NCBI GenBank assembly: GCA_948468275.1
Contig: CAOKHI010000003.1
Location: 1 to 62,350, forward strand
Direction of reading: 5' to 3'
Length of the DNA stretch: 62,350 bases
Source of the DNA: an uncultured Clostridium sp.
GTDB lineage: Bacteria; Bacillota; Clostridia; TANB77; CAG-508
Shown here: piece by piece, positions 2,025 through 19,362 of the stretch
Layout of the letters: every line of letters begins with the position of its first letter
How positions within the stretch are numbered: the stretch's first letter is position 1
The notes under the pieces: model-generated
Seen by the model: only the letters and a program-made list of their open reading frames with translations
Databases searched by the model: none
What the model was told of the DNA's origin: nothing
Position numbers and translations under genes: made by a program

Positions 2025-2060
2025 AAAGGCAACTAGCACATTTATCGGTTAGTTGCCTTT
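2025..2060 (-). terminator. intrinsic terminator downstream of the PBECR4-like gene
   Basis: 10-bp stem aaaggcaact/agttgccttt. On the minus strand it is followed by GUUUAUUAU. Confidence 0.55.
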
Positions 2061-2101
2061 ATTGACAAAAAATATAACAAAATTTTAATTTAATCAAATA
2101 T

Positions 2102-2821
2102 TCATTCACTATCATCTTTTTTTGTTTTATAAATAAAATCATATATTTTTTTATCTGTATTTCTATCTGCTGAATATATGTTTTTTGTGTCTATAGTCTT
2201 ACTTATTTCTTTGTTTTTCAATATATCAGTAATTTGATAACTTTGTTTTAAATATGTAATGTTTTTATACAATTTTTCAGTAATGTCTTTTTTGAAAATT
2301 GCTACAATCTTATTTCTATTATTTGTTATATTTCTAATATCTTTTTTTAAAGATGTATTAGGAATATATGTATTTGATTCATTATCTTTTATAAATCCCA
2401 TACAAGCATTTATATTTCCTGCAATTTTCTCTGTCTGTAAAAAAATATTAAAGTTAGAAAACTCTCCAAACATATTGGCCATCCTATCTATTCTCATAAG
2501 TTGAGGTAATACTTGGAGCTTCAAGTCTGTAGTTGAATCTTTTTCTTTTATTATATATTCTTTTAAATTTAATCTTTCATCCTTCAAAATATCATAAAAT
2601 TCATAAGCATTTAAACTTTTTCCAGTTGATTTTTCTATTATTGATACACCAGTTAAATGTTTATAACTTGATCTAGGAAAATAAACTTCTTCTTTTGAAA
2701 GTGTTCTATCTTTATTTTCTATAACAAACATTACTTTTGTATTTTTTAAATTCTTATCATATTCTTTTAAGCATTTAGAAACTGTATTAAATATATCTAT
2801 AGGTCTTGATATTCCTTTCAT
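2102..2821 (-). CDS. PBECR4-like (Barnase/EndoU/ColicinE5-D/RelE-fold) putative RNase; candidate toxin
   Basis: 239-aa ORF with RBS aaggagg. The YFPRSSYKHLTGV...IPNTSLKKDIRNIT...IVAIFKK pattern matches my recollection of PBECR4 domain proteins of Firmicutes mobile elements. The family call was not verified by search. Confidence 0.55.
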   Translation of the reverse strand: MKGISRPIDIFNTVSKCLKEYDKNLKNTKVMFVIENKDRTLSKEEVYFPRSSYKHLTGVSIIEKSTGKSLNAYEFYDILKDERLNLKEYIIKEKDSTTDLKLQVLPQLMRIDRMANMFGEFSNFNIFLQTEKIAGNINACMGFIKDNESNTYIPNTSLKKDIRNITNNRNKIVAIFKKDITEKLYKNITYLKQSYQITDILKNKEISKTIDTKNIYSADRNTDKKIYDFIYKTKKDDSE

Positions 2822-2843
2822 TATTTTCCTCCTTAAAACTTAT

Positions 2844-2888
2844 AAAGAGGAGTATTTTCGTACCGCAGTACCATAATCCCTCCTCTTT
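2844..2888 (-). terminator. hairpin / leaky-terminator candidate between repeat RNA and nuclease gene
   Basis: On the minus strand: aaagaggag-(27 nt containing inner gtac/gtac stem)-ctcctcttt, followed by AUAAGUUUU and then the RBS. Confidence 0.45.
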
Positions 2889-2897
2889 AATGTGCGA

Positions 2898-3003
2898 TTT
2901 TTCCGTTGCCTAACCAACCCCAAGAGCTATACTCTTGCCTGAATTTTAGGTTTTTCCGTTGCCTAACCAACCTAAAAGGCTATACCTTTTCTTGAATTTT
3001 AGG
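2898..3003 (-). ncRNA. two tandem 53-nt structured repeats (candidate type III antitoxin-like RNA)
   Basis: Units 2898-2950 and 2951-3003 have an identical 22-nt block and an identical 13-nt tail. The internal hairpin shows compensatory changes (caagag/ctcttg vs aaaagg/cctttt) with the same ctata loop. An outer CCUAA/UUAGG pairing is also conserved. Confidence 0.6.
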
Positions 3004-3061
3004 TTATTGTGGCAGTCGCACCTGCTATGCAAGATAAATTGCAACTATCATTATTATATTC

Positions 3062-3090
3062 ATTTTACAATAAAATATTTACAAAGTCAA
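3062..3090 (-). promoter_or_regulatory. sigma-A-type promoter driving the repeat RNA and PBECR4-like gene
   Basis: The minus strand reads TTGACT-17 nt-TAAAAT, about 50 nt upstream of the first repeat. Confidence 0.6.
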
Positions 3091-3141
3091 GTATTTGCAA
3101 ACATTTTTTCACAGTAATAATAAGAGTTTTATGGATTTTTC

Positions 3142-4580: not shown

Positions 4581-6049
4581 CTTTTAGCCCCTTTACTATT
4601 TCCATAATTTAGTTTTACTTTATTTTCTTCAATTACTAAACTAGCTGAAAATGTCTTACCTTGTTTAGATTTAAAACCTTTTATTTCTTTTGTTTTTCCT
4701 TTTTCTAACAATTCTCTAATTATTGTATCGTTTATTTTTTTACCACAAATCTGTTTCCATATACTAAAACCACAATTTTGCCAATCCTCACAATAATAGC
4801 TTTTGTTATTTTCTATAATGTCTTTGCCACATATAGGACATTTCCCTATTGCTGCTTTTTTAAATTGTGTTATTTCTGCTTTTTTGTTTATCCCTTGTTT
4901 AACCTCTTCTTTTACTTTTTCTAATACCTTATCTACACTACTTTTGTTGTTATAAATTGCTTTCAAATCTTTACTTATTTCTACTGTTTTTTCTTTGTAT
5001 AGATTTATTCCTAATTCTTCTAATATTTCAATTAGTTTAATTCCCTTGTCTGTAATCGCTAAGTTATTTTTGTTTTCTACAATATATCCATCTTGTTTTA
5101 CTTTTTCAATTATTCCAGCACGAGTTGCAGCAGTTCCTATTTCGCATCCTTCCATAATTGCTATGTAATCTTCATCTGTAGTTTCATCTTCATTTTCTTT
5201 CTTTTCCTTTTTAAATGGATTTTCATAGAAGTTATTAAGTTCCGCTTCTGTAACTCTGTTTGGAGGATTTGTTGTTTTTTCTACAACTTTAAGTTTAATA
5301 TCAACTTCTTCTCCTTTTTCTAATTTTACTTTATCCCCAAGTTCTATTTTTATTTCTTTATTATCTTTAGTTATTATGCCTTCAAGTTGTATATATTTTT
5401 CTTCTTTAAAGTTAGTTATCTCTTGCTCTCTATCATATATAAACTTAACTGTTGGAACAATAACTCTTCCTACAGGAAATTTATCTTTAGCTTTTATACT
5501 AACAAACCTTGAAAAGTTAATTCCATAAATCCAATCTATATAAGTTCTCGCTAATCCTTCTTTGTACCAGTTTTCTGTATCTTTTATATTTCTTAAATTA
5601 TTAAGTTCTGTTCTTACTGTGCTTTCTGCTAAATCTGGTAATAGAATTCTTTTTACTGTTTTCTGAATTTTATTTTTTCTAAAAATATCATAGATCAAGT
5701 TATTTACTAAAACTTCTCCTTCTCTATCATTGTCGCCACAATTAATAATTATATCAACCTCTTTTTTGAGTATTAGCTTTTCTATTAATTTATATCTTTC
5801 TTTGATGCCCTTTTGTTTTTTTATTTTCCATCTAAATCCATTTGGGAAATATGGTAAATCTTCAATATTCCAAATTTTCAATTCTTTATTATAATCTTCC
5901 ATTTGATATAATTCTAATAGATGACCATATAATGATGTTATAATATATTCTTCATTTTCATAGTATTCTTTAGTCTTCGTACATCCTTTTAAGGTTTTGG
6001 ATAATTCTTTCGCTACACTCGGTTTCTCTGCTATTATTAATTTTTTCAT
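4577..6049 (-). CDS. type IA topoisomerase (Topo III)-like protein lacking the catalytic-tyrosine domain
   Basis: Toprim AEKPS and DNDREGE motifs. GRVIVPT (=GRVQTPT). TTNPPNRVTEAEL joined directly to IGTAATRAGIIEK. C-terminal CPICG zinc finger plus topoisomerase C-terminal repeat (GFKSKQGKTFSASLV). No xYPRTDS segment anywhere. Confidence 0.8.
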   Translation of the reverse strand: MKKLIIAEKPSVAKELSKTLKGCTKTKEYYENEEYIITSLYGHLLELYQMEDYNKELKIWNIEDLPYFPNGFRWKIKKQKGIKERYKLIEKLILKKEVDIIINCGDNDREGEVLVNNLIYDIFRKNKIQKTVKRILLPDLAESTVRTELNNLRNIKDTENWYKEGLARTYIDWIYGINFSRFVSIKAKDKFPVGRVIVPTVKFIYDREQEITNFKEEKYIQLEGIITKDNKEIKIELGDKVKLEKGEEVDIKLKVVEKTTNPPNRVTEAELNNFYENPFKKEKKENEDETTDEDYIAIMEGCEIGTAATRAGIIEKVKQDGYIVENKNNLAITDKGIKLIEILEELGINLYKEKTVEISKDLKAIYNNKSSVDKVLEKVKEEVKQGINKKAEITQFKKAAIGKCPICGKDIIENNKSYYCEDWQNCGFSIWKQICGKKINDTIIRELLEKGKTKEIKGFKSKQGKTFSASLVIEENKVKLNYGNSKGAKR

Positions 6050-6206
6050 ATTTCTCTTTCTCCTTTAAACTTTTCAAAAATAATAATTGCTGCATATCCT
6101 CTTCTACTCTTTCTTCATCCGTCTTGCTTAAACTAGCTCCTCTGATTAATAAGTAAAATAACACAGATATTATTACTGATATTATGATTAGTATTCTTAA
6201 AATCAT
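5970..6206 (-). CDS. possible small membrane protein
   Basis: 78-aa ORF with an N-terminal hydrophobic helix. Its 3' end overlaps the topoisomerase start by 80 nt. Confidence 0.3.
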   Translation of the reverse strand: MILRILIIISVIISVLFYLLIRGASLSKTDEERVEEDMQQLLFLKSLKEKEKYEKINNSRETECSERIIQNLKRMYED

Positions 6207-8610: not shown

Positions 8611-9507
8611 TCATTTATTTTTTCTATAATCTTGAAAATTTGTGTCTATTTCTATACAAATTTCATTCAGTCTGCTTACTAATGATTCTGCTGTTTTCCC
8701 ATCATTTCCAAGACTTAATCTTTTTACAAGTTCTTGCTCTGTATAGTTTGTTGTAATAATTATAGGTAGCATATTTTCATATCGACTGTTAATTATTTGG
8801 AACAATTTCTCTAATACCCATTCACTTAGTCTTTCTTTTCCAAGATCATCAATAATTAAAAGGTCACATTTACAATACAGTCTAATAATTTCATAGTAAT
8901 CTAAATTATTGTTATTATAGGATTCTTTTAACTTCTCCATTAAATTAATAAATGTCTCATAAATAACTGGTATTCCTTGTATTAATAATGAATTGGCTAT
9001 TGCAAATGCTAAGTGTGTTTTTCCTGTTCCATATCTTCCAATAAAAATTAGTCCTGTTCCATCCTCCTTATACTTTTGCCAACAGTCTGCATATCTTTTG
9101 GCCATAGCAAAAACTTTTTTATTTTCATCATTAGTTTTGTAGTTTTCAAAAGTCCTCTTCATTCCTCTTTTGCTAATATTACTTTGTTGAAATAATTTTT
9201 CTATTTTTCTTTGGTATGCTATTTTTCTTTCTGCTTCTTCTTTCTTTTTTTCTTCTTCTGCTTCACGAAGCCTCTTAAATTCTTTATCTTCTAAATACTC
9301 CTTACAGTCACAATCTATAACTGAAAACCAATTAAAAATTCTAGTTTGGTCAAAAGGATTTATAAGACCTTTCCATCCTAATTTTTTTTTGCAAAATGGA
9401 CAATATTGTGCATCTGGAATGGTTGGGTACTGATAGTTTTTTAGTTTTTCAGTATCTTGACTATCTATGAAATATTCTTTTGTAATATCGCTATCTTCAT
9501 TCTTCAT
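8611..9507 (-). CDS. DnaC/IstB-like AAA+ helicase-loader ATPase
   Basis: Walker A GRYGTGKTH and Walker B LLIIDDLG. Located downstream of the replisome organizer. Confidence 0.85.
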   Translation of the reverse strand: MKNEDSDITKEYFIDSQDTEKLKNYQYPTIPDAQYCPFCKKKLGWKGLINPFDQTRIFNWFSVIDCDCKEYLEDKEFKRLREAEEEKKKEEAERKIAYQRKIEKLFQQSNISKRGMKRTFENYKTNDENKKVFAMAKRYADCWQKYKEDGTGLIFIGRYGTGKTHLAFAIANSLLIQGIPVIYETFINLMEKLKESYNNNNLDYYEIIRLYCKCDLLIIDDLGKERLSEWVLEKLFQIINSRYENMLPIIITTNYTEQELVKRLSLGNDGKTAESLVSRLNEICIEIDTNFQDYRKNK

Positions 9508-10429
9508 TCAATAGTTCTTCTCCCTTCCTTTTAAAGCCATTAGGATCACTTGAATCTGCTTCACTATTGTTGTTATTCTTCTTAAATTCCTTTTCATCTT
9601 GCTTGACTTGTTGAAGTGTATTGATTCCTTTTGCTAACCAGCTATTCAGGATTTTTTTAGTGTACTGCCATGTTGGATTTTTTATCATACCAGTTCTAAT
9701 AAGTGCATACTCAACTAGTTCTATTGGAAAACATTTAAGATAGTTAATACATTCATTAATATTTTCTTCCGTTATATCTTCTAAAGAGTTTTCAAATATT
9801 ATTTTTATTTTTTTATAATCTTTTTCAGTTTTTTCTATTTGTTCTATACTAATTTCACTTGTATTATCTTCTTCTATATTTTCTTTTTTTAAATTTTCTT
9901 TTTCTAACTTATCTTGACTTATATTGTCTTGACTTATCTTATGCTGTCCAATGTCAGTCATTTGTCTGTCATCTGTCTGTCGATTGTCTGCCTTTGGACT
10001 GTCATTTGTCTGTCCATTGACTTCCATTTGGCTGTCATTTGACTGTCCTTCTTGTTCTGAAGATTCTTTCTTTTTACTAGTTGCTCTCTTTTTTGGTTCA
10101 ACCAATTTTATTCCTGGTATTGCTTTTAATAGCAAATCCTTATAAATGCTATCTACTTTTCTATCTGCTCTAATAACATTATGCTCTCTCCAGTCTATTA
10201 TGTAAGAGACTAAATCATCATTTAAAACTTTAACATATCCTTTTTCTACTAATATATCAAAGTATTGTTCCTCTACTCCAACTGCTTGCATAACACTATA
10301 TGCTTCTACAACACCATCATCATCTGCATCTAATATTAAATGCAAATAAAGTTTGTGAGATTCTGAAGGCATTTTCAAGAATTTAGCTGATCTACATATT
10401 TTTTTGCTAAACATTCTCCTATTAGCCAT
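9497..10429 (-). CDS. phage replisome organizer (N-terminal organizer domain + C-terminal DnaD/DnaB_2 domain)
   Basis: MANRRMFSKKI...FLKMP...LYLHLILDADDDGVVE at the N-terminus. YTKKILNSWLAKGINTLQQV is DnaD-like at the C-terminus. Low-complexity repeat linker between them. Confidence 0.8.
   Translation of the reverse strand: MANRRMFSKKICRSAKFLKMPSESHKLYLHLILDADDDGVVEAYSVMQAVGVEEQYFDILVEKGYVKVLNDDLVSYIIDWREHNVIRADRKVDSIYKDLLLKAIPGIKLVEPKKRATSKKKESSEQEGQSNDSQMEVNGQTNDSPKADNRQTDDRQMTDIGQHKISQDNISQDKLEKENLKKENIEEDNTSEISIEQIEKTEKDYKKIKIIFENSLEDITEENINECINYLKCFPIELVEYALIRTGMIKNPTWQYTKKILNSWLAKGINTLQQVKQDEKEFKKNNNNSEADSSDPNGFKRKGEELLNEE
9912..10050. repeat. direct repeats inside the replisome-organizer gene (candidate ori)
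   Basis: tcttgacttat occurs twice (9912-9937). CTGTCATTTG(T/A)CTGTC occurs three times (about 9954, 10000 and 10032), plus tgtctgtc repeats. Confidence 0.5.
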
Positions 10430-12136: not shown

Positions 12137-13334
12137 ATGGCTGGAACTAAAATTAAAAGAGCTAACGGAAAATATAAATTAAGTTATATGAAAAATAGAG
12201 AAAGATATAATACAACAGTTATTGCTACTAATGATGCTGAAGCAGATGAGCTTTTAGAAAAGTTTGTTTCACAAATTGATAAAATGTCTCAAATTGATAA
12301 GAATACTTGCACATTATCAGAGTTTGTTGATTTATATTTTGAAAACTATGCTTATGATATGCTTGCTGAAGAATGTATCTATAACTATTATAGAGCATTA
12401 AAAAATTGGGTACTACCAAAAATAGGAAATACTGTACTTGCTAAATGTACCACTCCATTTTTTATTGATTATTTCAATTGGCTTGCTAAACAAATTAGTC
12501 CAAAAACAAATAAAGTTTTATCAGTAGGAAGCAGAGAAAAAATATTTGGAATTATATCATCTGTTTTTAGCTGTGCTGTTACTTGGAAATTATTTACTGT
12601 AAATCCTTTATATGCTGCAAGACCTGATGATTTTAAAAAGAATTCAAAAAATAATATTTCTCATATACAAGAAAGATGTTTAACTATGGAAGAAAGCAGA
12701 AAACTAATAAAAGCATTAGAAACTGTTGATCTAAAATATAAAATCATTGTACATTTTGCAATTATAGGTGGACTTCGTAGAAGTGAAATAATGGGAATTA
12801 AATGGAAAAATATTGATTTTGTTAATAAAACTTTAACATTGCAACAGTCTATTCAATATGTTCCTAAAAAAGGATATGTTGAGGGTGATTTAAAAAATGA
12901 CTCTTCTGAAAGAACAATAGCCCTTCCCCATTTAACAATGCTTATGCTATTAGATTATAAAATGCAAACAGTTGACTATGATAATGATTTCGTTTTTATT
13001 AATGATAAAGGAAGGCGAAGAGGTTTAAGAATGAATCCAGTTTCTGTCACAAATTGGTTTAAAGCATTTAGAGATAAAATAGAACTTCCTCCAGAAGTTC
13101 CATTGCACGGATTAAGACATACAAATGCTACTATCTTGATTTCAAAGGGAATCAATGTAAAGAATGTAAGTAGCAGACTTCGGTCATTCTAATACATCAA
13201 CTACATTAAATATTTATTCGCATGCTTTAACATCTATTGATAAAGTAGCTGGAGATACTTTAGACAAGATTTTATTTAAACGAAAACATACATTTAGAAT
13301 ACAGAAAAAAAAGAAAGAAGAAGCCCTTGTATAA
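12137..13334 (+). pseudogene. tyrosine integrase, module 1, frame broken at in-frame CGG 13181-13183 (intact if the C is skipped)
   Basis: The zero frame ends SSRLRSF*. Skipping C13181 gives SRL-G-HSNTSTTLNIYSHALTS..., which is collinear with integrase 2 (SRLGHSNVDTTLNVYSHALTN). The catalytic Tyr lies after the break. Confidence 0.85.
13181..13183 (+). other. in-frame CGG / +1 frame-break site (integrase 1)
   Basis: aga ctt CGG tca ttc taa. The +1 frame reads ggt cat tct aat. Confidence 0.9.
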
Positions 13335-14086: not shown

Positions 14087-15325
14087 ATGGCTGGTTCTAT
14101 TACAGTCAAAGGTAATAATAAATATAAACTTTGGTATATGAAAGATCATGAACGATATATAAAAACTGTTACTTGTGCTTCTTATCAAGAAGCTGAAGTA
14201 TTTTTAGCTTCTTTTGTTACTGATATTAATAATGGTACTTATGTTAAACCCTGTAAAATGACACTTGAAAATTTTGTGACAAGAAGATATTTAGACTATT
14301 ATGCTTTTCATAATCTTGCTGGTGAAACTATTTATAAACATATGCAAGAACTTAGATCTTGGGTATTTCCAAAACTAGGAAATTATAAAATGGCTGACTT
14401 TACACCTTATATCTGGTCTGAATATTTTTCTTGGTTATCTAAACAAGTAAGTACACAAACTGGTAATTTACTGTCAATTGGTACAATTGATAGAATCTTT
14501 GCGGTATTATGCTCTGTGTTCACTTGTGCAAAAAAATGGCAATATGTAAAATCAAATTCTGTAAAACAATCTAGGTCTGATTTATCAAATAAAAAACATA
14601 AAAAAGCTAAAAAAGCTCATGTCCAGGAGAGATGTTTATCATATCAAGAAGCATTTAAATTAATAGATGCCGTAGAAAAGGTTGATTTAAAATATCAACT
14701 AATTGTACATTTTGCAATTGCTGGTGGACTTCGTAGGAGTGAAATTCTTGGTATAAAATGGTCTAATGTTGATTTCAATTCAAATATTATAAAACTTTCA
14801 AAATCAAGTTTACAAGTTCCGAATCTTGGTTATGTTGAAGGTGATTTGAAAACCCCTACTTCTCATCGAAGTATCTATATGCCACCTACTACTATGGAAT
14901 TACTAAAACATTATCATGAAATTACTCCTAATACGGATAATAATTTAGTATTTGTAAACAATCGAGGTGTTAGAAAAGGAAAAAGATTGTGTCCTGCAAC
15001 AGTAACTAGGTGGTTTAGATTATTTAGGAAAAAAATTGATCTTCCTCCTGAAGTACCATTGCACGGATTAAGACATACAAGTGCTACTATTCTTATTGCT
15101 GAAGGAATTAATATAAAAAATGTAAGTAGCAGACTTGGACATTCTAATGTTGATACAACATTAAATGTATATTCTCATGCTCTTACAAATGTTGACAGAT
15201 TAGCTTCTGATACAATAGAAAAATGTTTGTATGAAGATCCTGAAGATGAAATTATTCCTTCTAGTCCTTATACTATTTCTAGTAAAAGATATAAATCAAA
15301 AATTAAATTAAGCAAATTGAAATAG
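14087..15325 (+). CDS. tyrosine recombinase / phage integrase, module 2 (intact)
   Basis: 412 aa with GGLRRSE, HGLRHT and LGHSNVDTTLNVYSH motifs. Confidence 0.9.
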   Translation: MAGSITVKGNNKYKLWYMKDHERYIKTVTCASYQEAEVFLASFVTDINNGTYVKPCKMTLENFVTRRYLDYYAFHNLAGETIYKHMQELRSWVFPKLGNYKMADFTPYIWSEYFSWLSKQVSTQTGNLLSIGTIDRIFAVLCSVFTCAKKWQYVKSNSVKQSRSDLSNKKHKKAKKAHVQERCLSYQEAFKLIDAVEKVDLKYQLIVHFAIAGGLRRSEILGIKWSNVDFNSNIIKLSKSSLQVPNLGYVEGDLKTPTSHRSIYMPPTTMELLKHYHEITPNTDNNLVFVNNRGVRKGKRLCPATVTRWFRLFRKKIDLPPEVPLHGLRHTSATILIAEGINIKNVSSRLGHSNVDTTLNVYSHALTNVDRLASDTIEKCLYEDPEDEIIPSSPYTISSKRYKSKIKLSKLK

Positions 15326-18156: not shown

Positions 18157-19362
18157 TTAGTTTTCTAAGAATTGTTTATTATTTTTGCACATAGAATATA
18201 ACATTCTTAGAATTTTTGTAGAACAAGCAGTTAGGCTTTCGTAGAAGTGTTTGCCTTCTGCTTTTTTATTTTGGTAATAAATATATACTGGATGTTCTGG
18301 ATAATTTGAAGCTCCTAATTTTACTACCATTTGGCTACAATTAAATAATATATATCTTGCATATTTGTTTCCTCTTTTTGATATTGCTCCTTTCACATTT
18401 ATACTTTTTCCAGATTGCTTTATTGTTGGGTCAAGTCCACAAAAAGCTATTATTTCTTTTGGACTATCAAACCTTGTTATATCTCCTAATTCTCCAAGTA
18501 TTTCAGCTGTTAATATTTCGCCGATTCCATAAAATGAATTTATTATTTTAAAATATGGAGATTGCTTTGCTGTTTCTATCATTTTATCTCTCAATTCATT
18601 TATGATATTGTTATTATTTTGTACTATTTTAGCCATATCCGAAAGGTTTTTTGTGTCTTCGTGTTCTTTATCAACTCCAGGATAAGAGTTAGTTGAAGCT
18701 ATTTTTATTGTTTCTGCTAGTCTTTTATAAAAGTTTAAATTTCTTCCATTAGTCTTATATAAATTGTTATACAATGCATCAATTCGCTTCTCTTTCACTA
18801 TTTCTGCATGTGGAAATTCTTTGATAAAATTCAATGCTGTATCATCATAAATTCTTGTTGATTTAAAGATTTTCTCTAGTTCTGGAAAGCATATATTTAT
18901 TAATCTCTTGTATCTATTTTTACAACTAACATTATTCTGTAGCAAATAAAAATATTGTCTTGTCATTGCTTTTAAATCAGCATATAAATCCTTTTTAGAT
19001 AAATCGTGATATTCTACTTCATTTACAAAGAATAACTTTGCTAATCTATAACAATCTTCTTTGTCTGTTTTAGTTTTTCTGATGGTGTCATAATTATTTT
19101 TAGTTGTTAAACTATTGATAACTAAAGTATTAAAACCATTTTCCTTAAAATATCTTTCTACTGGTAAATGATATGTACCTGTTGATTCCATAAATACTGT
19201 TAGATTTTGTGGATTAATTTCTTTTATTTTTTCTTTTACTTTCTCAAACTCTTCTAAATTATGCTTTATTTCTTTTGTATCAATAAGTATCTCTCCATCA
19301 CTATTCATAAGCATTATCATACTTTTATTTTTTGCAACATCTACGCTTAATACTGTTTTCAA
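18157..19362 (-). CDS. IS110-family transposase/recombinase
   Basis: 401 aa. N-terminal VLSVDVAK...FMESTGTYH (DEDD RuvC-like). C-terminal FYGIGEILTAEILGELGDITRF...CGLDPTIKQSGKS...ISKRGNKYAR. Confidence 0.9.
   Translation of the reverse strand: MKTVLSVDVAKNKSMIMLMNSDGEILIDTKEIKHNLEEFEKVKEKIKEINPQNLTVFMESTGTYHLPVERYFKENGFNTLVINSLTTKNNYDTIRKTKTDKEDCYRLAKLFFVNEVEYHDLSKKDLYADLKAMTRQYFYLLQNNVSCKNRYKRLINICFPELEKIFKSTRIYDDTALNFIKEFPHAEIVKEKRIDALYNNLYKTNGRNLNFYKRLAETIKIASTNSYPGVDKEHEDTKNLSDMAKIVQNNNNIINELRDKMIETAKQSPYFKIINSFYGIGEILTAEILGELGDITRFDSPKEIIAFCGLDPTIKQSGKSINVKGAISKRGNKYARYILFNCSQMVVKLGASNYPEHPVYIYYQNKKAEGKHFYESLTACSTKILRMLYSMCKNNKQFLEN

Follow-up and report, generated by a model that had tools for sequence, protein, structure and literature searches.

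By the Blower 2012 criteria, as excerpted in a 2025 survey of type III toxin–antitoxin systems, such a locus consists of tandem repeats that are followed by a terminator and then by a toxin gene, and the survey covers the related ToxN, CptN, and TenpN toxin families together with AvcID and AbiF (PMC12283969). Among the described systems, CptIN (Eubacterium rectale/Coprococcus; PDB 4RMO) is, like the locus of interest here, found in gut Clostridia, and has the same order of parts, namely a promoter, approximately two tandem repeats, a terminator (a putative one in our case), and the toxin gene (a proposed one in our case). Each CptI unit folds as an H-type pseudoknot that has a long A-rich loop in addition to a first loop of 1 nt (PMC4627078), and this design, including the presence of two genetic repeats, is shared by the RNA described in this work. 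The CptIN complex, a closed ring of two RNAs and two proteins, would also fit a two-unit RNA such as ours. However, CptN has a ToxN/Kid-like fold, and the present protein has no sequence or fold match to CptN. In addition, the CptI unit is 45 nt long, in comparison to 53 nt and an extra hairpin here. The units here are cross-paired and the RNA is closed by a third pseudoknot; to our knowledge, CptI repeats do not pair with one another, and CptI has no extra 5′ hairpin that is locked to the 3′ end.

ToxIN and AbiQ/antiQ share with the present locus the layout of promoter, repeats, terminator, and endoribonuclease (the last two predicted in our case), as well as pseudoknotted RNA units and carriage on mobile elements. 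The ToxIN antitoxin RNA is processed at A-rich sites, and phage-encoded antitoxin mimics are known for ToxI, to which the orphan RNAs described below are comparable. In contrast, ToxI comprises 5.5 repeats of 36 nt rather than two of 53 nt, and the ToxIN toxin belongs to Pfam ToxN_toxin, to which the PBECR4 profile is unrelated (hhalign probability of 0.3% against a ToxN-family protein). The homology that unites ToxN, CptN, and TenpN (a ToxN/Kid-like fold) is absent from our protein. [quoted passage not shown] Similar to the present locus, this is a prophage-borne toxin preceded by a structured noncoding RNA with two copies of a conserved motif; its toxin, however, is Abi_2/AbiD/F, related to Cas13 ancestors and not PBECR4, and its RNA motif belongs to another family. 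Finally, the PBECR domains of the polyvalent proteins of phages and conjugative elements (Iyer et al. 2017) are members of the same superfamily, with a conserved helix His and a C-terminal Thr/Ser. These domains are seen as injected offensive effectors without a described antidote or immunity, PBECR4 is an RNase by prediction, and solo PBECR versions are known in phages (PMC5512222). Unlike in the polyvalent proteins, the solo PBECR4 of our locus is tied to a dedicated upstream RNA.

The window, by which we mean the whole stretch of DNA analyzed (62,350 bases), carries this locus at 2025–3090 on the minus strand, between an SprT-like gene on one side and an HD-domain gene on the other. In the order of the minus strand, a promoter is followed by two in-phase 53-nt repeats, a long hairpin, a ribosome binding site (RBS), and a 239-aa open reading frame, with the individual features as follows:

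3062–3090, minus strand: sigma-70-type promoter, with TTGACT at 3090–3085, a 17-nt spacer, and TAAAAT at 3067–3062
3028–3043, minus strand: small 5′ leader hairpin, read from the sequence (UGCAA/UUGCA, loop UUUAUC)
3012–3025, minus strand: hairpin H0, stem GCAG/CUGC, with loop GUGCGA (3021–3016) pairing with seg3
2951–3003, minus strand: repeat unit 1, found by TRF and aligned in full by the covariance model, composed of seg1 CCUAA (3003–2999), hp1 (2990–2974), H1 (2971–2958), and the A-tract GGAAAAA (2957–2951)
2898–2950, minus strand: repeat unit 2, found by TRF and by model alignment, composed of seg2 CCUAA (2950–2946), hp2 (2937–2921), H2 (2918–2905), and the A-tract GGAAAAA (2904–2898); H1 and H2 read GUUG-GUUAGG-CAAC in both units
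2892–2897, minus strand: seg3 UCGCAC, the exact complement of the H0 loop GUGCGA, forming a long-range pseudoknot
2844–2888, minus strand: two-part hairpin hp3, with a 9-bp outer stem AAAGAGGAG/CUCCUCUUU and an inner stem GUAC/GUAC with loop UGCG
2828–2843, minus strand: U/A-rich tail AUAAGUUUU and RBS AAGGAGG (2834–2828), the latter 6 nt before the ATG
2102–2821, minus strand: 239-aa PBECR4 open reading frame (ATG at 2821; Pfam PF18813; predicted BECR-fold RNase), the proposed toxin
2025–2060, minus strand: hairpin AAAGGCAACUA ... UAGUUGCCUUU followed by GUUUAUU, likewise read from the sequence and a probable operon terminator

An earlier note on this DNA had read the same parts as a type III toxin–antitoxin locus, an interpretation that is supported in part. 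The parts it listed are present, and those of its predictions that can be tested computationally hold: the TTGACT-17-TAAAAT promoter is present at 3090–3062 (10 of 12 positions match), the two tandem repeats lie at 3003–2951 and 2950–2898 both by sequence and by TRF, and the hairpin with its 9-bp outer stem at 2888–2844 is indeed followed by the RBS and the open reading frame. Two aspects of that reading needed revision. The repeats are not simply followed by a terminator, being instead part of a single 187-nt fold in which three pseudoknots lock together a 5′ hairpin, both repeats, and the segment ahead of the last hairpin. Moreover, the locus does not lie at the cargo end, as had been suggested, but within the early/replication block of an integrated element, at a depth of approximately 9 kb.

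The repeats form the top-scoring TRF array of the window (period 53, 2.0 copies, 85% match, score 160), and constitute tandem direct repeats on the same strand as, and upstream of, the gene (2 × 53 nt, 3003–2898), as in type III systems. Of the 53 positions, 8 are not the same in the two copies, and six of these form three compensatory pairs in a 6-bp stem that reads AAAAGG/CCUUUU in copy 1 and CAAGAG/CUCUUG in copy 2, with the loop UAUAG in both, in agreement with the compensatory changes first noted. Blocks of 22 and 11 nt are identical between the copies; the 13 nt originally given for the second block holds only when the AA before each copy is counted. The complementarity between CCUAA and UUAGG is also found in each of the two copies. 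Taken by itself, the window holds just these two copies and three compensatory pairs, as might be left by a recent local duplication without function in which the changes compensated one another by chance. This is refuted by comparative data, as the same architecture recurs, with extensive covariation, in more than 200 loci, and we consider such an origin virtually impossible.

The full RNA is approximately 187 nt long (2842–3028), and folds into five short hairpins, the two-part terminal hairpin, and three pseudoknots, all of which are supported by covariation. As the MAFFT alignment of all clades (A2) shifts the clade of the window by one column relative to the others in the H stems, the covariance model was built from the main clade only (A3), with the remainder aligned by the model. 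The 5′ leader hairpin (3028–3043) was left out of this model, although many homologues have a short hairpin of variable sequence at this position. Single-sequence folding (z = −3.5) was not used, as the minimum-energy structure pairs the CCUAA segments otherwise and misses the pseudoknots. When the model lacks the clade of the window, it still returns one match in the 62-kb window, which is full-length (71.1 bits, E = 2.6e-19), such that the RNA of the window is a full member of the family; the repeats are also not a scattered element, which was among the possibilities raised at the outset and which we reject on the basis of this single copy.

Each H hairpin has a 4-bp stem and a loop that pairs with a short segment after an A-tract, resulting in H-type pseudoknots in which the first loop is a single nucleotide and there is a long loop rich in A. 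The H0 stem is paired in 97.8% of cells across the family, with all four pairs changing on both sides, and the stems of hp1 and H1 covary across homologues. The H1 loop pairs with seg2 at the start of unit 2 (97% of cells paired in homologues), the H2 loop pairs with seg1 at the start of unit 1 (100%), and the H0 loop pairs with seg3, which follows unit 2 (98.4%, with four of six pairs changing on both sides). The repeats are therefore cross-linked, and the RNA as a whole is closed on itself. Variants of the H0 loop and seg3 include GUGCGA/UCGCAC, GUACGA/UCGUAC, GGCUGA/UCAGYC, GGCUAA/UUAGUC, GAUUGA/UCAAUC, GCUUGA/UCAAGC, and GGCCGG/CCGGUC. The pseudoknot partners are specific, with mean contiguous pairing of 5.9 nt for H0–seg3, 4.6 nt for H1–seg2, and 4.2 nt for H2–seg1, in comparison to 2.6–3.9 nt for wrong partners; partners borrowed from other sequences also score lower than a sequence's own. 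Among 42 sequences without the clade of the window, 93.5% of cells are paired, compared to 32–53% after sliding of the partners, both sides change in 37 of the 52 pairs, and none of 500 shuffles reaches the observed values. With 86 distinct family members, the corresponding figures are 94.5% paired, and 35 of 38 pairs covarying. The RNA is under selection for structure.

The A-tracts that end the units are invariant, and are candidate cleavage sites, although they could also be purely structural, through minor-groove contacts in the pseudoknots. Units of 52–56 nt are found in homologues, with most loci having two, L007 and L040 one, and L012 three, a varying number that is also seen in type III arrays. 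We rejected a retron, a CRISPR-like array, and a guide RNA, as the locus lacks both a reverse transcriptase and any variable segment resembling a spacer, and as internal pairing takes up all of the single-stranded segments. The same observations bear on the idea of a working ribonucleoprotein, in which the RNA would serve as a cofactor, scaffold, or dedicated substrate of the protein, as when Cas6 matures crRNA, and the complex would act on some target. The obligate linkage between RNA and protein, the repeated hairpin units with their invariant A-tracts, and the conserved loops of hp1 and hp2 (ACGAAUGUG in the main clade), which suggest protein contacts, would all suit such a particle. The RNA nevertheless has no variable guide-like segment, its short single-stranded segments being taken up internally, and protein-less orphan copies are common, even though a cofactor would be useless alone; we thus regard this explanation as improbable.

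The link to PBECR4 is close: of the 121 PBECR4 loci for which upstream DNA was available, 120 have the RNA immediately upstream of the gene, and it is also found upstream of the PBECR4 gene in a deposited Erysipelothrix phage record (phi1605) and beside the most distant PBECR4 homologue tested. The association persists to approximately 28% protein identity and across several bacterial classes, and homologues down to approximately 28–35% identity are preceded by repeats with covarying stems, a check that the earlier note had proposed. In the opposite direction, about 37 of 121 DNA-motif matches (~30%) have no PBECR4 gene directly downstream, and about 30 of 121 have none within 3 kb. These stand-alone copies are full-length structures, scoring up to 194 bits. 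For a toxin and its antidote, one would expect just such a pattern, with the protein (almost) always accompanied by the RNA and the RNA often standing by itself.

Stand-alone copies and RNA-only arrays, including in viral contigs, together with the fact that hp3 closes the transcription unit in stand-alone cases, would also agree with an independent family of small-RNA genes of mobile elements, for example, decoys against host or rival RNases, with PBECR4 downstream by happenstance. It is hard to reconcile happenstance with an association as regular and as deep as that just described, or with the observation that PBECR4 is the only protein family to recur downstream of the RNA, and we consider this reading improbable as well.

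As to how the gene is transcribed, homologous loci have a TTGAC-type −35 and a TAxAAT-type −10 element ahead of the RNA, with the distance unchanged. Given the AT-rich composition of this stretch, promoter-like matches are in themselves not rarer than expected by chance (7 found, compared to 10.4 expected), and our promoter call therefore relies on this conserved position. The outer stem of hp3 is 97.5% paired, with all nine pairs covarying, and its inner stem is 96.8% paired. Orphan RNA copies stop at hp3, and unrelated genes or new promoters come next. The position of hp3, between the repeats and the gene, is that of the terminator in type III systems. A simple terminator scan does not flag hp3, the stem of which is interrupted and the U-tract of which is poor, being short and partly paired; hp3 is likely a weak terminator. 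Nor does such a scan flag the hairpin after the open reading frame, in this case because of its 14-nt loop. The distance from hp3 to the start codon is only 22 nt, which leaves no space for a second promoter, so that the open reading frame must be transcribed by read-through of hp3. Promoter, conserved position, and short gap together point to the single promoter of type III systems.

This dependence on read-through also raises the question of whether the RNA is only a cis-acting 5′ leader, that is, an attenuator or operator that sets the amount of PBECR4 without neutralizing the protein, or, in a variant, one whose units are bound by PBECR4 itself (autoregulation) or by another factor to control hp3 termination or mRNA stability. 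The RNA is always on the same strand and directly upstream, the H0–seg3 pseudoknot abuts hp3 and connects the RNA to the mRNA 5′ end, and in many members the 3′ strand of hp3 is a C-rich sequence similar to an anti-Shine–Dalgarno sequence, all of which would suit a leader. However, if the RNA were purely a leader, it would not be retained in the absence of the gene, as is the case for the approximately 30% of DNA-motif copies that stand alone, full-length and high-scoring. In locus L195, for instance, three orphan copies share an island with a canonical ToxN system (2.9 × 50-nt repeats; Pfam ToxN_toxin, E = 1e-30), each with its own promoter and with unrelated genes next. Furthermore, we see no alternative antiterminator pairing, and the varying unit number and tandem RNA-only genes are better suited to a trans-acting RNA. 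A role confined to the leader is thus, in our view, unlikely.

The protein matches Pfam PF18813 with E = 3.6e-29 (102.9 bits, compared to a cut-off of 27), over residues 14–193 and profile positions 2–187 of 188, in support of the original assignment to PBECR4; this is its only Pfam match. We obtained 70 homologues in a first search, and 1645 clusters at 50% identity (E ≤ 1e-3). Invariant residues include E45, H55, T57, K101, T130, N155, T156, D161, R163, and Y185. In the AlphaFold2 model (pLDDT 89.4), H55 is located in the helix 50–57, and T130 and T156 are in strands; a check of the conserved residues, as had been advised, thus gives an invariant helix His (H55) and invariant Thr residues (T57, T130, T156), in line with the active-site pattern of a helix His and a C-terminal Thr/Ser proposed by Iyer et al. 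2017. Foldseek finds no match in the PDB at E ≤ 1e-3, including no barnase, RelE, colicin, or EndoU structure, such that the BECR fold stays a prediction, and we accordingly reject kinship with ToxN, CptN, AbiQ, and Kid. The protein has neither sequence nor fold similarity to ToxN, CptN, or AbiQ; that it is not ToxN-like had been anticipated. A profile search of PDB sequences gave nothing at E < 0.1, and only noise above, while Foldseek against BFVD returned two unnamed viral proteins and weak PolyVal matches, with no functional information. No family in PADLOC-DB 2.0.0 matches the protein at E ≤ 0.1, NCBIfam gave nothing useful, and PHROGs gave no family for it.

Taking all of this into account, the explanation that we favor, and that we consider moderately probable, is that the locus represents a new type III-like toxin–antitoxin family, with PBECR4 as the predicted toxin and the RNA as the putative antitoxin. 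One promoter would drive an RNA of approximately 190 nt, most transcripts would end at hp3, and a minority would read through into the promoterless PBECR4 gene, so that the RNA would be in excess over the protein. PBECR4, as a predicted metal-independent endoribonuclease, would be the toxin, and the RNA would bind it and hold it inactive; the protein would probably also cut the precursor at the invariant A-tracts closing each unit. Were transcription to stop or the RNA to be degraded, upon phage infection or loss of the element, PBECR4 would be freed and could cut cellular or phage RNA. We further propose, tentatively and as a possibility somewhat short of probable, that the new family combines the solo PBECR4 predicted toxin and the ~190-nt cross-paired-repeat RNA with orphan copies that act in trans against incoming PBECR4 toxins, as immunity or anti-defense decoys.

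If true, this would add a further type III family with an unrelated toxin, and would show that the recruitment of RNA repeats as antidotes has occurred repeatedly. For PBECR4, it would provide a testable function for a family of the size given above, the role of which has been pure prediction since 2017. The RNA itself is a new class, large and well supported, that is missing from Rfam, and its unusual fold, in which the repeats are cross-paired by reciprocal pseudoknots, makes it a good target for structural work. Gut Clostridia and the mobile elements they carry commonly contain the module, which may therefore influence how sensitive these bacteria are to phages and how stably the elements are maintained, and the arrays of orphan RNAs are suggestive of immunity or counter-defense mediated by RNA.

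With regard to prior descriptions and distribution, Rfam 15 gave no match to the RNA in the window (E ≤ 10) or in nine related loci (E ≤ 1). In our literature search, we encountered no report of an RNA that partners PBECR4, as the earlier note had supposed. A tblastn search of an annotated plasmid collection gave no match, and a blastn search of phages with the first 8 kb gave only a 99-nt chance-like match. The module is also found in prophage-like elements. In locus L021, RNA–PBECR4 modules stand in tandem, and their neighbors can be read, from translations alone, as a RelE/ParE-like toxin–antitoxin pair and a relaxase. Some of the orphan RNAs are arrayed beside ToxIN systems, and some are located in viral contigs.

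Read on the minus strand, the locus carries a promoter-like site, two 53-nt repeats, a hairpin, a ribosome-binding site (RBS) and a 239-aa ORF in the order that the earlier note had claimed:

3090-3062, minus strand: promoter-like site TTGACT-17-TAAAAT (10/12 positions)
between this site and the repeats, minus strand: leader of about 50 nt (sequence reading)
3003-2951 and 2950-2898, minus strand: two 53-nt repeats, head-to-tail (TRF)
2888-2844, minus strand: hairpin with a 9-bp outer stem (sequence reading)
between hairpin and ORF, minus strand: tail AUAAGUUUU, then RBS AAGGAGG (sequence reading)
2821-2102, minus strand: 239-aa ORF (Pfam PBECR4)

The repeats form the best TRF array of the whole window (period 53, 85% match, score 160), and 8 of 53 positions are not the same in both copies; six of these eight make up the three compensatory pairs previously described in the 6-bp stem, with the UAUAG loop unchanged; the shorter identical block, given before as 13 nt, is 11 nt long. 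Two further claims hold only in part, in that the promoter-like site is present but such matches are not rarer than chance in the AT-rich DNA of the window (7 observed vs 10.4 expected), and the hairpin is present but receives no terminator call from a simple terminator scan. The start codon lies 22 nt behind this conserved terminal hairpin (hp3), which leaves no room for a second promoter.

The ORF product matches Pfam PBECR4 (PF18813) with an E-value of 3.6e-29 (102.9 bits, cut-off 27), as had been proposed from its sequence. The family comprises 1645 clusters at 50% identity (E<=1e-3), 489 of them with E<=1e-30, and most members are stand-alone proteins of 200-250 aa. Residues invariant among 27 diverse members include E45, H55, T57, K101, T130, N155, T156, D161, R163 and Y185. 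A confident AlphaFold2 model of the protein (pLDDT 89.4, pTM 0.86) places H55 in helix 50-57 and the invariant Thr residues in strands, a predicted arrangement that agrees with the active site proposed for the PBECR families, namely a His in a helix and a C-terminal Thr/Ser (PMC5512222). The protein has no match in PADLOC, NCBIfam or PHROGs. We also considered a relationship to ToxN, CptN or AbiQ, and rejected it, since Foldseek of the model against the PDB gives nothing at E<=1e-3, a profile search of PDB sequences gives nothing below E 0.1, and hhalign against a ToxN-family protein returns a probability of 0.3%; the ORF is thus indeed not ToxN-like, and its RNase nature is still a prediction.

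The first protein search returned 70 homologues at 31-72% identity, and the loci fetched with a protein alignment (A1) number 44 in species-representative genomes, 2 in viral contigs and 80 in metagenomes. TRF detects upstream tandem repeats of 52-56 nt in only part of them; all upstream sequences read share a common architecture of promoter, 4-bp-stem hairpin H0, one to three units of segment, variable hairpin, further H hairpin and A-tract, then a segment, a long hairpin, RBS and ATG. The structure, with seven nested helices and three pseudoknots, was scored on an RNA alignment of the main clade (A3, 42 sequences, the window's own clade left out), where 93.5% of cells form standard pairs, vs 32-53% with the 3' partners slid by 1-3 columns; both-side changes occur in 37 of 52 pairs, and none of 500 shuffles reaches the observed values. 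The expectation that homologues would be preceded by tandem repeats with covarying stems is thus borne out.

The covariance model built from A3 (R1) has exactly one match in the 62,350-base window, a full-length one on the minus strand at 2842-3028 (71.1 bits, E 2.6e-19). Because R1 never included the window's clade, this match is an independent test of membership, and being single it shows that the repeats are no scattered element, a possibility that the earlier note had raised. A family-wide alignment fitted to R1, which leans towards the structure of the model, has 94.5% of cells paired and 35 of 38 nested pairs covarying. In Rfam 15, the RNA matches no family, for the window and related loci searched. 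We regard the comparative finding as well supported, real and non-trivial.

The 4-bp stem of the H hairpins is GUUG/CAAC, with GCUG/CAGC and GUCG/CGAC as covarying variants, and the hairpin loops of 5-7 nt are complementary to a short segment behind an A-tract elsewhere in the RNA. On A3, the partners are as follows:

H0 loop with seg3 (segment after unit 2): 98.4% of cells paired, both-side changes in 4/6 pairs
H1 loop with seg2 (start of unit 2): 97% of cells paired, both-side changes in 4/4 pairs
H2 loop with seg1 (start of unit 1): 100% of cells paired, both-side changes in 1/4 pairs

A separate script scored partner specificity over 76 distinct full-length members, giving a mean longest contiguous pairing of 5.9 nt for H0-seg3, 4.6 nt for H1-seg2 and 4.2 nt for H2-seg1, vs 2.6-3.9 nt for the six wrong partnerships; partners swapped in from other sequences also score below the true ones. 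The H0/seg3 pair reads GUGCGA/UCGCAC in the window, GUACGA/UCGUAC, GGCUGA/UCAGYC, GGCUAA/UUAGUC or GAUUGA/UCAAUC among other members, GCUUGA/UCAAGC in phage phi1605 and GGCCGG/CCGGUC in the locus of the most distant homologue. Since loop and segment (UUAGG/CCUAA) are the same in both repeats of the window, the window alone cannot tell within-unit from cross-unit pairing; in the main clade, whose two units are not identical, it is cross-unit. H1-seg2 is a classical H-type pseudoknot with a first loop of 1 nt and an A-rich loop of 7 nt, the design reported for CptI (PMC4627078). For type III antitoxins, we have seen no earlier description of reciprocal pairing between repeats or of a pseudoknot like the third one here, which joins the 5' hairpin H0 to seg3 ahead of hp3. 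We note also that the loops of the variable hairpins hp1 and hp2 (A3 columns 47-56 and 103-112) are a near-identical 9-nt sequence in the main clade, ACGAAUGUG or ACGUAUGUG, though their stems covary, and UAUAG in the window's clade; the conserved loops may serve to contact a protein or to mimic a substrate.

R1 places the RNA directly upstream of the gene, on the same strand, in 120 of 126 PBECR4 loci. In five of the six exceptions the contig provides no upstream DNA; the last, L063, is a match truncated at its N terminus. Upstream of the most distant homologue of the first protein search, the RNA is present (86.9 bits). It also precedes the gene in Erysipelothrix phage phi1605 (87.7 bits), where the product is listed as a hypothetical protein and the gene's neighbours are a restriction subunit and the recombinase; no other annotated phage record has a homologue. 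In the opposite direction, species-representative genomes were searched with a 24-base motif of the RNA (at least 120 stretches), which gave 121 instances. A PBECR4 ORF follows the motif in 76 of these, contig ends cut off about 8, and about 37 lack a PBECR4 ORF immediately downstream. When the 3 kb to either side of the latter were searched in six frames, about 30 had no PBECR4 at all; among the others, two have a convergent copy about 1.9 kb off, one a distant upstream copy and one a short N-terminal remnant. The orphans are full-length RNAs, with scores of up to 194 bits; viruses may carry them too, as in three of seven IMG/VR viral contigs with the motif (L253, L254, L255) the 1.5 kb downstream of it contain no PBECR4 ORF. 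The linkage is therefore asymmetric: in the loci examined, a PBECR4 gene without the RNA was never seen, and the RNA without PBECR4 was often seen.

Other arrangements were also observed. Two loci carry a second, one-unit RNA copy about 300 nt downstream of PBECR4 (L028:3387-3518 and L122:2387-2518), in the order RNA-toxin-RNA, with convergent ABC-transporter genes next. L129 and L217 each have two convergent copies, one before PBECR4 and the other before an ORF (about 215 aa) whose N-terminal sequence, judged by eye, suggests a lipoprotein. In L099, a drum RNA at 1726-1839 (Rfam RF02958, 94 bits, E 8e-17) closely follows the PBECR4 gene.

By analogy, and from the asymmetric linkage, we consider it probable that the RNA binds and silences the predicted RNase in a type III-like manner. 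One promoter would drive the structured RNA and, through hp3, the PBECR4 gene; orphan genes ending at hp3 suggest that most transcripts stop there, and because hp3 would stop most transcripts, the RNA would outnumber the mRNA, a likeness to ToxIN, where RNA is in excess of toxin mRNA. On the same grounds, the protein may cut at the invariant A-tracts, and loss of the RNA supply would free the toxin. As a functional claim, silencing of a predicted toxin by this RNA is plausible.

The main competing explanation, that the RNA is a purely cis-acting leader, appears unlikely in view of the many intact stand-alone copies, which in a Ruminiclostridium MAG (L195, JAGAWN010000297.1) have their own promoters. 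Five promoter-RNA-hairpin units, their promoters nearly identical, form an island at L195:3500-6142. It comprises three orphan copies, an RNA of another kind with two repeats (about 4590-4720), and a type III system of canonical form with 2.9 x 50-nt repeats (5061-5205), a terminator and an ORF (5267-6142) matching Pfam ToxN_toxin (E 1e-30). In Filifactor villosus (L021:880-3115, NZ_JBHSHL010000005.1), one RNA-only unit precedes two RNA-PBECR4 modules in tandem, with ORFs at 1475-2116 and about 2474-3115; these are flanked by what look from the translations like a RelE/ParE-like toxin-antitoxin pair upstream (283-826) and a relaxase downstream. We rank below the leader, as improbable, both an RNA-PBECR4 ribonucleoprotein with the RNA as cofactor or substrate and a small-RNA gene in its own right, for which PBECR4 would be a passenger.

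By layout, with repeats, terminator-like hairpin and proposed toxin gene behind one promoter, the module matches the genomic criteria for type III loci, which call for repeats, terminator and toxin gene in that order (PMC12283969). It differs from toxIN, cptIN and tenpIN in toxin family, and so fails membership of these; AvcID and AbiF provide a precedent, as the type III label already covers unrelated toxins. The 2017 paper describing the PBECR families, to which the Pfam PBECR4 model corresponds (PMC5512222), and a 2026 BECR classification both regard PBECR proteins as RNases by prediction and give no antidote for them. Full-text searches found PBECR4 named only in a transcriptome study, for one such gene on an Enterococcus plasmid, and literature searches found no description of the associated RNA or of an RNA partner, in agreement with the earlier statement on RNA antitoxins. 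Given the type III layout, a toxin outside toxIN, cptIN and tenpIN, no Rfam match and no described RNA partner, we therefore regard the module as a candidate for a new type III-like family, one in which toxin fold and RNA class would both be new.

Across the window and sister contigs, the host element reads integrase, divergent HTH genes (from their arrangement, these look like a cI/cro-type switch), HTH_17 gene, DnaD-like, DnaC-like, topoisomerase, SprT-like gene, RNA-PBECR4, HD-domain gene and DNA polymerase III alpha genes, with no virion genes in view. From this order, the locus lies not at the cargo end of a prophage-like element, as had been thought, but about 9 kb inside the early/replication block of an integrated element. 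The remainder of the window holds chromosomal genes (arginyl-tRNA synthetase, PNPase, AddA-type helicase-nuclease). Within the DnaB_2 (DnaD-like) replication-initiator ORF (9497-10429), a 33-nt repeat x 3.2 at 9944-10048 (11-nt sub-repeat TGTCTGTCATT x 8.7) looks like origin iterons of the element. Two plus-strand tyrosine-integrase genes (12137-13192 and 14087-15325, about 900 nt apart) stand at the element edge, with an IS110-family transposase (18157-19362) beyond both, and may mark two integrated elements, either adjacent or nested. At 59074-59110, the 12-nt unit TATCTTGGTGGG is repeated perfectly in tandem (x 3.1, TRF score 74).
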